A stretch of DNA of 64,000 nucleotides from Parcubacteria group bacterium (GCA_943358385.1 CALRGX010000002.1:9718-73717), one strand, 5' to 3'. Shown: positions 47,681 to 56,019, counted from the first letter of the stretch. A program made the numbers and translations. The notes: generated by a model from the letters alone, not told the origin.

Positions 47681-48346
47681 ATGAACCGCGAGGTGCCGTT
47701 GAGTACCGGAGAGGTGTACCACGTATACAACCGTGGCGCACATAAACAAAAGGTCTTCACCAGTCCCATAGACTATGCTCGCTTTCAGCTGCTGCTCTAT
47801 TTAGGTAACGCAAAAGACCCGGTGCACATGGGGAACCTCCTCTCAAAATATAAAGGACCGACCTTTATAAAAATCTACCAAGAGCACGACATATCAAAGG
47901 AAGAAAAATTGGTCGACATCCTCGCATACTCGCTACTACCAAACCATTTTCACCTCGTCCTGAAGCAAAAGGTGAATGGCGGTATCTCACTGTTTCTAAA
48001 AAAAGTGGCCACAGCATATTCCATGTACTTTAATGGCAAGTACGACCACAGTGGCACCTTGTTCCAAGGGCGCTTTAAAAGTAGTCATGTAGACACGCCG
48101 GAATATTTGCGATGGCTTTTTGCGTATGTGTATCTTAACGCTGCCGATTTGTGCAAAGAAAATGCACTCGCAAAGAAAACCACATTCCTGCGCCAGTATA
48201 GATACAGCAGCCTTCCGGATGCACTCGATGAGGGGAGGCCCGAGCGTTCGATAGTAGCTATCGAAACCCTACTAACCGATTTCAAAGAAGATCACACTGC
48301 CGACATTATCGAGCTCACCAGAATTATAAAGGACCGACCTTTATAA
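47681..48346 (+). CDS. REP-associated tyrosine transposase (RAYT / TnpA_REP, IS200-like HuH Y1 transposase)
   Basis: Motifs YHVYNRG, HuH NHFHLVL, and LFQGRFKS...YVYLNAADL (compare the RAYT consensus YHV..RG, HxHLL, LFQGRYK, YVHLNPVRA). Flanked by REP copies in opposite orientations. One REP copy lies inside the CDS and one overlaps its stop. Confidence 0.75.
   Translation: MNREVPLSTGEVYHVYNRGAHKQKVFTSPIDYARFQLLLYLGNAKDPVHMGNLLSKYKGPTFIKIYQEHDISKEEKLVDILAYSLLPNHFHLVLKQKVNGGISLFLKKVATAYSMYFNGKYDHSGTLFQGRFKSSHVDTPEYLRWLFAYVYLNAADLCKENALAKKTTFLRQYRYSSLPDALDEGRPERSIVAIETLLTDFKEDHTADIIELTRIIKDRPL
47848..47870. repeat. REP-like palindrome copy in ggaccgacc orientation, embedded in-frame in the RAYT CDS
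   Basis: aatataaaggaccgacctttata encodes KYKGPTFI. Confidence 0.75.
48325..48346. repeat. REP-like palindrome copy in ggaccgacc orientation, overlapping the RAYT stop codon
   Basis: ttataaaggaccgacctttataa encodes IKDRPL*. Confidence 0.75.
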
Positions 48347-51582: not shown

Positions 51583-52455
51583 CGCCACACCTTATGAGTA
51601 CTAACAAAAGCCCGAAGTAGAGCGGTTGGACCGGTCGAAAGGCCTTTCCAGAAGCCGCGTTGAAGCGGCCTTTTTAGTGCAAGGAGTAAGGGAGAACGTT
51701 GACACACAAGGATTCATTTATTGGAGATGAATTCTTTCATATACGAAATTAAAACAACATGCAGAAATGCGTGTTGATGAATCAATCAATTGCAGGCTTC
51801 ATACCGCTACGGTGGTATGAATAAAAAATGTATGACGAACATACTGAACATATGTTCGTTCGAGATCTGTACCAACGCGAAGGCGGAGGTATAGAAATCA
51901 ATCACAATGCGGTTCTTAGAATTTCTAACAGGAGATTCTAATAAGGGCGTATGGTGGATGCCTTGACTGAAGAGAGCGATGAAGGACGTGGTCTGGCTGC
52001 GAAATGCATCGGGGAGCTGCCAAACAAGCTTCGATCCGGTGATGTCCGAATGGGGAAACCCTATTGAGTAACCCTCAATAACTTTGCACTAGCAAAGAGC
52101 ATACCTCGGGAAGTGAAACATCTCAGTACCGAGAGGAAAAGAAAACAATTGTTATTCCCTTAGTAGCGGCGAGCGAAACGGGAGGAGCCCAAACTTAATT
52201 GAGATCAAGGGGAGCATTTCCATGTTCCTCCTGATCTCGGTTAGGGGTTGTAAGGCGTTAGCGCTGTGTTTACACAGGAAGAGTTACAAAGTTTTTGGTT
52301 AGCAGAATCATCTGGAAAGATGAGCCCCAGCGGGTAATAGCCCCGTATGCGAAAATCAAAAGCCTCTTTGGCTAATGTCCTTGAGTAACTCAAGACACGA
52401 ATAGCTTGAGTGAATCTACCGGAACTAACCGGTAAGGCTACATATCTCTTCAGAT

Positions 52456-52498
<43 letters not shown>

Positions 52499-53928
52499 GG
52501 TGAGGGGAGTGAAATAGACCTGAAACCATATGTCTACAAGGAGTCGAAGAGGGCGTAAGTCCTCGACGGCGTGCCTATTGAAGAATGAGCCAACGAGTTG
52601 ATGCATTCGGCTTGCCTAAGAGGTGAACCCTCGGAGGCGTAGTGAAAGCGAGCGTGAATAGCGCGTTTGTCGTTTGTATCAGACCCGAAGCCAGGTGAGC
52701 TACCCATGAGCAGGCTGAACGCTATCGAAAGATAGCGGGAGGGCCGAACCGGTGAGTAATGCAACGCTCTCGGATGACTTGTGGGTTGGAGTGAAAAGCT
52801 TATCGAACTTGGTAATAGCTGGTTCTCTCCGAAACAGCTTTTGGGTTGGCGTCGCGTGTTCCTTGTGGGGGTAGAGCACTGGAAGGATTAAACAGGGCTT
52901 CGGCTCATTAATCCTATCAAACTCCGAATACCACAAATTAATAGCGCGGCAGTTAGTCCGTGGGGGCTAAGCTCCACAGGACAAAAGGGAAACAGCCCTA
53001 GATCGCCAGTTAAGGTCCCTAAATTAACGCTCAGTGTAAGCAAGGAGGTGAAGTTTCTTTGACAGTGAGGATGTTGGCTTAGAAGCAGCCACCATTTAAA
53101 GAAAGCGTAACAGCTCACTCACTCAGAGACTTTGCGCCGAAGATGATCGGGACTCAAGCGTTATACCGAAACTGCGGGTTCGCATATTTTTAATATGTGA
53201 GCGGTAGGAGAGCGTTCCATTCCGCGATGAAGGCAAAGGGGTGACCCATGCTGGAGCGTGTGGAAGTGAAAATGTTGGCACGAGTAACCGCAATGCGGGT
53301 GAGATTCCCGCACGCCGAAAGACCAAGGTTTCCTTCGCAATGGAGATCAGCGAAGGGTTAGCCGGGCCTAAGCCGATGGCGAAAGCCGAAGGTGATGGAC
53401 ACAGGGTTAATATTCCCTGGCTCGGACGTGGTGCGATGAGATGACGGAGGGTAGTAGTGTGCGCCCCTTATTGGTTTGGGGTCATTGCTCTGAGGGTGCT
53501 GGCGAGGTAAATCCCGTCCGCATAGCCCAAGGAGAGATGAGAACTGTGCTTCGGCACAGGAATGCACATGAGCACGCTTTCAAGAAAAGTCTCTAAGCAT
53601 AACCACGTACGATCCGTACCAGAAACCGACACAGGTGGTCAGGTCGAGTAGACCAAGGCGAACAAGTGAGTGCTCCTTAAGGAACTCGGCAAAAAAGCGG
53701 CCGTAACTTCGGGATATGGCCTGCCCCTCGCAAGAGGGGCCGCAGCGAAAGATTCCCTGACAACTGTTTACCAAAAACACAGCTCCCTGCGAACTCGTAA
53801 GAGGATGTATAGGGGGTGACACCTGACCAATGCCGGAAGGTCAAGTATGGGGGGTGCATGGATTTATCCATGTGCTGGACTATATAAGCCCCGGTCAATG
53901 TCGGCGATAACTATAATCGTCCTAAGGT

Positions 53929-54195
53929 TCCGCATTTCTCGCAAGAGGAATGCGGAAGGACTGGGACGATTATGGAGAAAAGGGTAAACAGAAATATCTA
54001 CACTAAAAAAGCTACCTTGTGCCCGCGCAGCAATGCGTCACGCACTTGTCCAAAACATGACTATATGATGATGGGTCCGAAACCGATCATCAGGCAATCC
54101 TCAGCGCAAGCGAATGGAGGCCATAGAGACTATACGCCATGTACCTTTTGCGAAAGCAGAAGGTAAAGAAATAGTCCAACGTAAAGGAATAGTTG
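53929..54195 (+). mobile_element. ORF-less group I intron in the 23S rRNA (helix 69-71 region, near E. coli position 1931)
   Basis: The 23S exon sequence cctaaggT / AGCGtAATTCCTTGTCGGG is interrupted by about 267 nt. The insert has GACTA...TAGTC P7-like pairing (agagactatacg ... aatagtcc) and ends in G. The upstream exon ends in U. Confidence 0.55.
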
Positions 54196-54858
54196 AGCGT
54201 AATTCCTTGTCGGGTAAATTCCGACGTGCACGAATGGTGTAATGATTGGGGAACTGTCTCAAGGAGCAGCTTGGTGAAAATACAGTACCGGTGAAGATGC
54301 CGGTTACCTGCAGCTAGACGAAAAGACCCCAGAAGCTTTACTGCAGCTTCATATTGGGGATACGAAAATACTGCGTAGCATAGGTGGGAGAGGTTGAAGT
54401 GATCCTTTAGGGGGTCATGGACTCGTCAGTGAAATACCACTCTTTATTTTTGTATCTTCTAACCTGGGTAGCAAAAATGCACAGGAACAGTATGTGGCAG
54501 GTAGTTTAAGTGGGGCGCTTTCCTCCTAAAAAGTAACGGAGGAGCTTATTAAGGTCACCTAGGCGCGGATGGAAACCGTGCCGATAGTGTAATGGCAAAA
54601 GGTGGCTTGACTGCGAGACGTAGGTGTCAAGCAGGTGCGAAAGCAGAACATAGTGAACCGACCTTCCGCGTTAGATGCGGGGGGAGATTAACCGATAAAA
54701 GTTACTCTGGGGATAACAGGCTAGTTCCGCCTAAGAGTCCAAATCGACGGCGGAGTTCGGCACCTCGATGTCGGCTCACCTTATCCCGGGGCTGGAGAAG
54801 GTCCCAAGGGTTTGGCTGTTCGCCAATTAAAAAGGTACGCGAGCTGGGTTCAGACCGT

Positions 54859-55164
54859 TCAGGATGCGAGAGCTAAGGCACGCAAGTGCACGCTCACATT
54901 CGTGTCCTGAACACGTCTGAACTCCGAGGAATACTTAGTTAGACAATTCACGGCGGCTCTCTATAGAAATACAGAGATGCATGTCTGACATATTTCGGTA
55001 GACGCAACCACGACCTAACCTGGCGTGGGTAAAGCAATACCGAGGGAATCTTGAGCGAAAGCGATAGAGCCCGTAGAGACTACACGTCAGATACCTGAAT
55101 CCTGAGCGTAAGCGAAGGAAAGGTAAAGATATAGTCCAGTACATAACACAATCAGTATGTATAG
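54859..55164 (+). mobile_element. ORF-less group I intron in the 23S rRNA (GGGUUUAGAACGU / CGUGAGACAG region, the I-CreI-site neighbourhood)
   Basis: The exon gggttcagaccgT / CGTGAGACAGGTTGGTC is interrupted by about 306 nt containing gtagagactacacg ... atatagtcc (P7-like). It ends in G. The upstream exon ends in U. Confidence 0.55.
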
Positions 55165-55567
55165 CGTGAGACAGGTTGGTCTTAATCTGCTGCAGGCGTT
55201 GATTTTTGAAGAGTTTCGTCCCTAGTACGAGAGGACCGGGATGAACTGACCTCTGGTCTGTGAGCTGTCGCTACCCGCGGCATTGCTCAGTAGCTATGTC
55301 GGGAACGGATAAACGCTGAAAGCATATAAGCGTGAAACCGCCTCTAAGATAAGAAATCATTTGAGACCCGTGAGAGATGATCACGTTGATAGGCACTAGG
55401 TGGAAGTGCAGTAATGCATTGAGCCGAGGTGTACTAATTCGTCGAAGAAACTCCTGTTAGAACTTCTGAGAACCAATCCGACACATACTATGTGTATAGG
55501 ATAGTCATTGTGAAATACAACTTGTAATTGATTGATAAAAGATTCGTGAACTGTAGTGAGTGCTTAC

Positions 55568-55642
55568 GCCCCTGTAGCTCAAGTAGAGCACCCAGGCTTT
55601 GTCTTGGGGAGGCTGCTGGTACAAATCCAGCCAGGGGTACCA
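55568..55642 (+). other. tRNA-like structure with an encoded CCA in the 23S-5S spacer. It is a degenerate tRNA: D-loop without GG, T-loop TACAAAT, imperfect anticodon stem, central TTT.
   Basis: Acceptor GCCCCTG/CAGGGGT plus ACCA, D-arm GCTC-AAGTA-GAGC, T-arm GCTGG-TACAAAT-CCAGC. The anticodon arm pairs only 4/5 with loop GCTTTGT. Confidence 0.4.
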
Positions 55643-55738
55643 CTCCGCTATTCTCCACACATTGAGTGTTTTGAGTAGCTTGGGCGAACTATACATTCGC
55701 TCACTCACTAGAGTTCACGAAAAGTATTGAATGTTTTG

Positions 55739-55865
55739 TGTTGGTGCTTTGTCGGAGGGGTGAGAATGTGCGGGGCACATTCGCAAGGCCGCAGCACTGG
55801 TGCGAGGCGGGGTAGCGGAACTTTTCAGCAGAAAAGTATACGTGACACACCCGTTTTCATTCAAT
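55739..55865 (+). repeat. partial, disrupted 5S rRNA pseudo-copy upstream of the intact 5S gene
   Basis: tgtgttggtgctttgtcggagggg at 55739-55762 is identical to the 5' end of the 5S gene at 55909-55932. acacccgttttcattc at 55848-55863 resembles the 5S ccacccgttctcattcc. Confidence 0.45.
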
Positions 55866-55910
55866 AAAATTTAAAGTAAACTCAAGTGTTCATGTACATC
55901 GAATATTGTG

Positions 55911-56019
55911 TGTTGGTGCTTTGTCGGAGGGGGTCCACCCGTTCTCATTCCGAACACGGCAGTTAAGCCTTCCTGAGGCAATGGTAGTCCGCAAGGGCGA
56001 GAGTAGCTCGGCGCCAACA
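55911..56019 (+). rRNA. rrf: 5S ribosomal RNA
   Basis: ccgaacacggcagttaagcc...atggtagt...gagagtagc conserved 5S motifs. Confidence 0.85.

Follow-up and report, generated by a model that had tools for sequence, protein, structure and literature searches.

[quoted passage not shown] According to the survey of Tsurumaki et al. (2024, PMC11270868), 82% of CPR 23S genes contain inserts, 45% of these inserts are group I by the Rfam model, 222 group I inserts are ORF-less, and LAGLIDADG hot spots lie at positions 1917, 1931, 1952, 2593, 2604, and 2657. Endonuclease-bearing introns at L1931 and L2593 occur in Simkania, Thermotoga, and cyanobacteria (Haugen et al. 2007, PMC1995217). The L1931 introns of Thermotoga, Simkania, and Synechococcus, like the canonical CPR introns at this site (our loci L060, L068, and L101), are 650 to 700 nt long and carry a LAGLIDADG gene; their two-exon guide, GCU-x-CCU(UAG), is a few bases away from the 5′ splice site, with a G opposite the splice-site U. 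The L2593 introns of Cr.LSU (I-CreI), Synechococcus, and Thermosynechococcus sit in H93, have a U.G pair at the 5′ splice site, and end in G, and the cyanobacterial ones are about 745 nt long, with an endonuclease gene and P7.1/P7.2 extensions (PMC1995217). Ribozymes engineered to lack P4-P6, a minimal catalytic domain cited in PMC2879505, are related by their content of helices. Finally, short ORF-less 23S inserts also occur as RNase III-processed intervening sequences (IVS) in bacteria with few rRNA operons, at other sites, with no ribozyme core and no exon ligation.

The window analyzed here is the whole stretch of 64,000 nt, and it holds one 23S rRNA gene with two inserts. We consider it very probable that both are group I introns without an ORF, at positions 1931 and 2593, and that the host of this single 23S rRNA gene is a Paceibacterota (CPR) bacterium. 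Such introns are already cataloged at these two sites in CPR 23S genes, and as a pair those of the window are ordinary for the CPR. They agree with the surveyed introns in host group, gene, hot-spot sites, absence of an ORF, and core, and differ from them in nothing essential. The survey sorted its inserts by the Rfam model, and both window introns fall short of the default threshold of that model; guide architecture and splice-site pairs are not described in it (PMC11270868). Intron 1 shares its site and the two-exon guide with the longer L1931 introns but is only 267 nt long, has no ORF, places a 28-nt hairpin and a 14-nt anti-exon guide before the guide, and has an A opposite the splice-site U. 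Intron 2 shares the H93 site, the U.G pair, and the terminal G with the other L2593 introns; unlike the cyanobacterial ones it is 306 nt long, lacks an ORF, has 3 nt between P7 and P3′, and uses a split guide. Our literature search found no description of a covarying split guide, of a U-A splice-site pair, or of L1931 relatives without P4-P6.

The Rfam model RF02541 (2,358 bits, model positions 1 to 2925) places a full-length bacterial LSU rRNA at positions 51929 to 55458 on the plus strand, as are all features described below. With its 3,530 nt, the gene exceeds E. coli rrlH (2,904 nt) by 626 nt, and 573 nt of the excess are the two inserts; the surplus of the gene was given as about 570 nt in the first-pass annotation of this DNA. 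Its coordinates and lengths for both inserts proved exact in the comparison it had proposed, a MAFFT alignment against E. coli rrlH: insert 1 occupies 53929 to 54195 (267 nt), after E. coli U1931, and insert 2 occupies 54859 to 55164 (306 nt), after E. coli U2593. It had also described both inserts as starting after an exon U and ending in G, and indeed U53928 and U54858 precede them and G54195 and G55164 terminate them, directly 5′ of the conserved exon bases AGCG and CGUG, as expected of an omega G. The conserved exon bases at the junctions read CCUAAGGU/AGCG for insert 1 and GACCGU/CGUGAGACAG for insert 2; neither boundary can be shifted, since the first and last bases of each intron are unlike their exon neighbors. 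The predicted ligated junctions are CCTAAGGT/AGCGTAAT and CAGACCGT/CGTGAGAC (also written ATAATCGTCCTAAGGT/AGCGTAATTCCTTG and GGGTTCAGACCGT/CGTGAGACAGG). The regions named earlier, helix 69 to 71 and the I-CreI neighborhood, are the known sites L1931 and L2593. Intron 1 is located between H69 and H71, and intron 2 is located in H93, in the peptidyl-transferase center. L2593 is the insertion site of the I-CreI intron of Chlamydomonas (Cr.LSU). Elsewhere in the gene, domain I (52194 to 52297) has about 86 extra nucleotides relative to E. coli 272 to 290, in blocks of 40 and 46 nt, which look like a helix extension and are not intron-sized.

The earlier guess of a CPR host was borne out by contig L104 (Candidatus Paceibacterota bacterium Gw_Eff_bin_92, GTDB), which matches the 3′ part of the 23S gene at 99.9% identity and carries the same L2593 intron. 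In NCBI taxonomy, Paceibacterota is entered as a synonym for Minisyncoccota, a phylum that contains Patescibacteriia, and hence the host is a CPR bacterium. A search with the core pattern returned 37 IMG/VR contigs (L008 to L044) and at least 100 genome contigs. Similarity to 23S was present in 71 of the 100 listed genome contigs, with inserts at E. coli positions 1917, 1931, 1951, 2593, and 2603/4 and at a few other sites; among the matches listed, the insert-bearing contigs are mostly from the CPR, with some from Omnitrophota, Gammaproteobacteria, and others. A metagenome scan with the exon end and the intron 5′ motif gave at least 120 loci. Combined, the metagenome and genome loci among the matches listed yielded at least 102 complete inserts of the L1931 subfamily besides that of the window, and 52 L2593 introns with exact boundaries were extracted from the matches listed. 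The core can be shared across sites: the L2593 intron of L126 and the L1931 intron of L168 are identical at 96 of 112 core positions and have different guides, so one ribozyme lineage has apparently changed its insertion site within the 23S genes of the CPR. Among the matches listed, the P7/J8-7 core pattern also occurs without 23S similarity in the 37 IMG/VR contigs and in 11 Poribacteria genome loci (L054, L059, L072, L081, L082, L092, L094, L099, L107, L124, and L137), presumably as group I introns in other genes.

For the class of the inserts, the first-pass annotation had named group I and suggested a scan with Rfam RF00028. At relaxed thresholds the model aligns to both inserts over model positions 1 to 253 (insert 1, 36.6 bits, E value 2.3e-7, 53928 to 54197; insert 2, 15.5 bits, E value 0.49, 54931 to 55164), but both scores miss the gathering threshold, and at the Rfam default gathering thresholds (RF00028 cutoff, 50 bits) no group I intron is reported in the 23S gene. 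The closest named relative among the matches listed, L119, likewise has introns scoring under the gathering threshold, at 46.8 and 22 bits, the latter being a 191-nt copy at L1931 that lacks P4-P6. The class itself stands on the RF00028 alignment together with covariation in P7 and other helices, the terminal G, and the P1/P10 guides. Each insert has one copy of the motif GAGACTAnACG...TAAAGAnATAGTC, which is found nowhere else in the window and in none of 100 shuffled sequences. The block shared by the two introns, GAGACUAyACG...UAAAGAwAUAGUC, comprises the P7 5′ strand, P3′, P8, J8/7, and the P7 3′ strand, and 71 of 86 positions are identical over the shared P7-P7′ part of the core. The minimum free energies also set both introns apart from shuffled sequences, with z-scores of −5.7 (intron 1) and −4.5 (intron 2).

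Structures were evaluated in two MAFFT alignments with named structures, A1 (10 full-core L1931 sequences) and A2 (15 L2593 sequences), against 500 shuffles and slid controls; the variable hairpins (distal P8, P5, and, in A2, the P9 of the window) align badly, and their scores are low. In A1, 86.8% of the cells are paired, versus 75.8% after shuffling and 36 to 45% after sliding, and 39 pairs are changed on both sides. The corresponding values for A2 are 80.0% versus 65.3% and 34 to 43%, with 40 pairs changed on both sides, and for neither alignment did any of the 500 shuffles reach the observed values. The core helices are paired almost throughout the relatives of introns 1 and 2, respectively (P3, 98% and 89%; P4, 100% and 92%; P7, 100% and 100%), and compensatory changes in same-site homologues of both introns support P2, P3, P4, P6, P7, and P8. 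The GACTA...TAGTC pairings described earlier as P7-like are P7 itself (GACUA/UAGUC), with compensatory changes in the relatives. No homing endonuclease had been seen in the inserts either, and we agree: the longest fully internal ORFs are 64 and 69 aa long, and neither contains a Pfam endonuclease domain.

Both introns have what we call a split guide. A hairpin at position +1 is followed by an anti-exon segment that pairs with 9 to 14 exon bases upstream of the splice site, and 35 to 50 nt beyond it lies the canonical internal guide. This guide forms P1 with the 4 bases at the end of the 5′ exon and P10 with the 3 to 4 bases at the start of the 3′ exon. The exon stretch paired with the anti-exon guide is immediately adjacent to the four bases held by the internal guide, so the two helices could stack into a quasi-continuous duplex of 12 bp in intron 2 or 18 bp in intron 1. 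We infer splicing itself from the sequence, boundaries, homology, and covariation that the comparisons demonstrate. In the route that we propose, each intron would fold within the pre-23S rRNA into a core of P3-P9 and P4-P6, and an external guanosine bound in P7 would attack the phosphate after the exon U. The terminal G would then enter the same P7 site, the 5′ exon would attack the 3′ splice site, and the exons would be ligated with release of the intron. In intron 1, the P9 loop pairs additionally with 7 bases of the 3′ exon.

The 5′ exon end of intron 1, as defined by the E. coli alignment and the pairing with both guides, spans 53911 to 53928. The anti-exon guide binds positions 53911 to 53924 (E. 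coli 1914 to 1927, in the loop and 3′ strand of H69), and the internal guide binds 53925 to 53928 (AGGU, E. coli 1928 to 1931). The intron starts with a 12-bp hairpin with a GCAA loop (53929 to 53956), an extension of P1, which is 97.6% paired and has 8 of 9 pairs changed on both sides. A conserved AGGAC (53957 to 53961) immediately precedes the anti-exon guide UGGGACGAUUAUGG (53962 to 53975; 96.4% paired in A1). Among the matches listed, 65 distinct combinations of exon and guide show 90.7% pairing in the L1931 anti-exon helix, and the guide covaries with the exon at E. coli 1920 (C-G 35, U-A 22, U.G 7, G-C 1) and also at 1921. An A-rich linker leads to the internal guide GCU-A-CCU (54011 to 54017), which is conserved across the L1931 family. 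Its GCU (54011 to 54013) forms P10 with AGC of the 3′ exon (54196 to 54198), 97% paired in A1, and its CCU forms P1 with AGG of the 5′ exon.

Downstream of the guide, P2 with a GCAA loop (54019 to 54045) has four distal base pairs that are 100% paired, all four with compensatory changes. The core of intron 1 (54056 to 54141), delineated by covariation in A1, includes P3 (54056 to 54061 with 54136 to 54141; 98% paired, 4 of 6 pairs compensatory), P4-P5 (54066 to 54092; P4 100% paired), P6 (54093 to 54122), and J6/7 with the P7 5′ strand (54123 to 54132); the window's own P4 has a compensated change from C-G to A-U. The 3′ part (54143 to 54195) consists of P8 with a GAAA loop (54143 to 54164), J8/7 (54165 to 54171), the P7 3′ strand (54172 to 54176; two of the five P7 pairs changed on both sides), and P9 (54177 to 54195), which includes the terminal G. 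The P9 loop AAGGAAU (54184 to 54190) is complementary to AUUCCUU in the 3′ exon (54202 to 54208), and the two covary in L1931 relatives, where the exon sequences AUACCUU or GUACCUU are accompanied by the loops AGGUAU or GGGUAC.

For intron 2, the E. coli alignment and the guide pairing place the 5′ exon end at 54847 to 54858 (E. coli 2582 to 2593), with positions 2582 to 2590 pairing with the anti-exon guide and CCGU (2590 to 2593) pairing with the internal guide. The +1 hairpin, again with a GCAA loop, spans 54859 to 54910 and the anti-exon guide GUCUGAACU spans 54915 to 54923. This guide covaries with the exon, among the matches listed, at E. coli 2588 (A-U 19, G-C 26, G.U 3) and 2586 (C-G 41, U-A 3). 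A linker separates it from ACGGCGG, invariant in the 15 aligned L2593 introns, after which P2 through P9 follow. The internal guide CACG-G-CGG (CACGGCGG, 54949 to 54956), whose pairing we read from the sequence, forms P10 between CACG (54949 to 54952) and CGUG of the 3′ exon (55165 to 55168); these bases are invariant and hence do not covary. P1 consists of the U54858.G54953 wobble and the pairing of CGG with the exon CCG. A U-A pair at L2593 via the base after the +1 hairpin was also considered and is ruled out, because ACGGCGG gives a canonical P1 with U.G as well as P10; the ACA(C)G segment could be no more than an alternative partner for the splice-site U.

The remainder of intron 2 (54958 to 55164) is the core supported by covariation in A2. 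It comprises P2 (54958 to 54977; 8 of 8 pairs changed on both sides), P3 (54983 to 54989 with 55086 to 55092; 6 of 7), P4 (54995 to 54999 with 55039 to 55043), P5 (55004 to 55035), P6 (55044 to 55072; 5 of 6), P7 (55078 to 55082 with 55132 to 55136), P8 (55093 to 55124; 4 of 4 at its base), J8/7 (55125 to 55131), and P9 (55141 to 55160), and J4/5 is A-rich. A terminal G is present in all 33 L2593 introns seen at full length (up to 480 nt) among the matches listed. The P5 loop CUAACCUG (about 55015 to 55022) is complementary to CAGGUUGG in the 3′ exon (55172 to 55179); we do not count this match as a feature, because we estimate that chance alone would give about 3.5 matches of 8 bp and because the P5 extension is missing from the relatives.

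Intron 1 departs from the canonical picture at one point: its guide GCUACCU puts A54014 opposite the splice-site U53928, and the U.G wobble of P1 is absent. To our knowledge, U.G is nearly universal at group I 5′ splice sites; Michel and Westhof reportedly stated this in 1990, and Hur and Waring are said to have described rare C-G cases in 1995. Our search of the literature for natural 5′ splice sites other than U.G found nothing citable. In A1, the position opposite the splice-site U is G in 9 of the 10 sequences and A in the window alone. Among the matches listed, all 34 L1931 guides of the G type have a gap the size of P4-P6 between guide and P7, whereas 34 of the 38 A-type guides leave no room for P4-P6, and the window is one of the four A-type sequences with such a gap; the U-A state in relatives is thus almost confined to L1931 inserts of 187 to 250 nt without P4-P6. 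In the Tetrahymena ribozyme, J4/5 contacts the wobble pair. The J4/5 of intron 1 is AUG/GAU, which could close into Watson-Crick pairs, while its relatives in A1 have an A-rich GAAA/CAAU internal loop. The rest of intron 1 (P3, P4, P6, P7 as GACUA/UAGUC, J8/7, P10, and the terminal G) is canonical, so that we still class intron 1 among the group I introns, its splice-site pair being atypical.

The inserts that lack P4-P6 are numerous. We found at least 39 distinct L1931 inserts of 187 to 250 nt with only 3 to 6 nt in the place of P4-P6 (L119, positions 864 to 1054; the others within L145 to L264). They keep the +1 hairpin, the anti-exon guide, GCUACCU, P2, P3, a 3-bp P7, P8, and P9, and 37 of the 39 among the matches listed end in G. 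Their P2 is 94.8% paired versus 66% after shuffling, P3 96% versus 81%, and P9 98.7% versus 68%; the remaining helices are still under selection. Among the L1931 matches listed, the last base varies with the type of P7: it is G in 12 of 14 inserts with GACUA/UAGUC or GACUU/AAGUC, A in 10 of 12 with GACCA/UGGUC (e.g., L202 and L160), and C in 9 of 10 with UACCA/UGGUA (e.g., L194, L156, and L187), the last type having U-A in place of the equivalent of the guanosine-binding G-C pair. This link could reflect clade inheritance.

The association of A-type guides with the loss of P4-P6 hints at weakened or lost self-splicing in the lineage of intron 1, which leads to a first alternative, namely that intron 1 is a crippled ribozyme that does not self-splice and is removed by a host or intron-family factor or by other cleavage, with intron 2 being normal. 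This is a possibility that we take seriously but consider doubtful. It would account for A54014 facing the splice-site U where 9 of 10 full-core relatives have G, for the tie of this A to relatives without P4-P6 (including the 191-nt copy of L119), and for a J4/5 that can pair. However, intron 1 retains P3, P4, P6, P7, P8, its P10 guide, and its terminal G in intact and canonical form, and the changes in P8 between strains preserve pairing. In addition, ribozymes without any of P4-P6 keep about 1/1000 of their activity in vitro (PMC2879505), so that the U-A change alone need not abolish splicing. We favor the reading that intron 1 is still excised, albeit probably more slowly or with help.

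The other alternatives concern both inserts. Next to the 5′ splice sites lie long helices (a 12-bp hairpin and a 9- to 14-bp exon-guide helix), and IVS-like inserts occur in CPR 23S genes (PMC11270868), as would be expected if the inserts were IVS cut by RNase III-type enzymes and left unligated, with a fragmented 23S rRNA as in Salmonella, Leptospira, and Coxiella. This is very unlikely, since the inserts lie at E. coli 1931 and 2593, known group I sites, and not in helix 9, 25, or 45, where known IVS take the place of the helix tip as one long stem, and cleavage alone would need neither a conserved group I core nor P10 guides nor a terminal G. That the inserts are expansion segments kept in the mature ribosome is more improbable still: nothing specific speaks for retention beyond the fact that several helices of CPR rRNAs are unlike those of E. 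coli, whereas established ribosome structure puts position 1931 at the subunit interface and position 2593 in the peptidyl-transferase center, and a ribozyme core is present where a simple helix extension would have none. As for an assembly chimera with introns of other organisms, rRNA regions are prone to misassembly, and both L005 and L006 are contigs that break off some 140 nt beyond intron 2; yet the same inserts occupy the same sites in independent assemblies (both in L003, intron 2 in L104), which leaves this explanation a negligible chance.

Strain comparison adds to the case for two structured group I introns. The window itself lies within a 103-kb ENA contig, and the same inserts were found in the independent assemblies L002, L003, and L104. 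L003 (GCA_021733565.1) carries both, with 98.8% identity over 4,962 nt; its exons differ from those of the window at 1 of 2,957 sites, its intron 1 at 11 sites, and its intron 2 at 1 site. Nine of the 11 differences in intron 1 lie in P8, where the hairpin of L003 is a different one that has a GUAA loop, includes tandem G.A pairs, and keeps the pairing. In L104, intron 2 is set apart from the copy in the window chiefly by an exchanged distal P8 hairpin, with a single further substitution in P6. Such differences are consistent with RNA structures under selection and not with decaying inserts. Distal P8 (54143 to 54164 and 55093 to 55124) is the sole hypervariable part of both introns between near-identical strains, and it is exchanged as a unit.

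What intron 1 represents is a more speculative matter. It has the U-A pair of the short inserts and a closed J4/5 yet keeps P4-P6, and for this reason we tentatively suggest, as a lead and with more doubt than confidence, that it is an intermediate between canonical L1931 ribozymes and undescribed L1931 "mini-introns" of 187 to 250 nt without P4-P6; it may thus be transitional toward natural group I introns of that kind. The intron 1 relatives that keep P3, P7, P8, and P9 resemble the engineered P4-P6-deleted ribozymes (cited in PMC2879505); intron 1 itself differs in having P4-P6, and the natural short forms are known from sequence. If intron 1 and the mini forms are excised with ligation, the choice of the 5′ splice site would work without wobble and receptor and would rely on the split guide (the anti-exon helix, the internal guide, and the helix between L9 and the 3′ exon), and the mini forms would be natural counterparts of the engineered minimal ribozyme. 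For ribozyme biology, the locus offers a guide, backed by covariation, that would extend P1 to 12 to 18 bp, a natural change from U.G to U-A, and abundant relatives without P4-P6 that are under structural selection; the latter two make the minimal size of a natural group I intron a testable question. On the practical side, the default Rfam thresholds miss both introns, and hence 23S annotation, rRNA binning, and phylogeny need intron-aware handling.

The surroundings of the gene have some features of their own. No 16S gene is present in the 52 kb upstream of the 23S gene (window positions 1 to 51928), so the rRNA genes are unlinked. Downstream, Rfam places a 5S rRNA at 55912 to 56019, and the 23S-5S spacer contains a tRNA-like gene (55568 to 55642, plus strand; Rfam tRNA, 45.5 bits) with an encoded CCA; ARAGORN draws a 6-nt anticodon loop for it, and the identity, Lys or Gln, is not assignable. 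It may be a processing signal rather than a working tRNA. A 35-nt direct repeat of the 5S 5′ end occurs at 55726 to 55760 and 55898 to 55932, and strain L003 lacks the approximately 172 nt between the two copies, so that a duplication or insertion where the 5S gene begins makes the spacer polymorphic. Upstream of the 23S gene lie rplJ, rplL, two unnamed ORFs, and a mechanosensitive-channel gene, and an ORF for an IS200-like Y1 transposase is found at 47681 to 48346.
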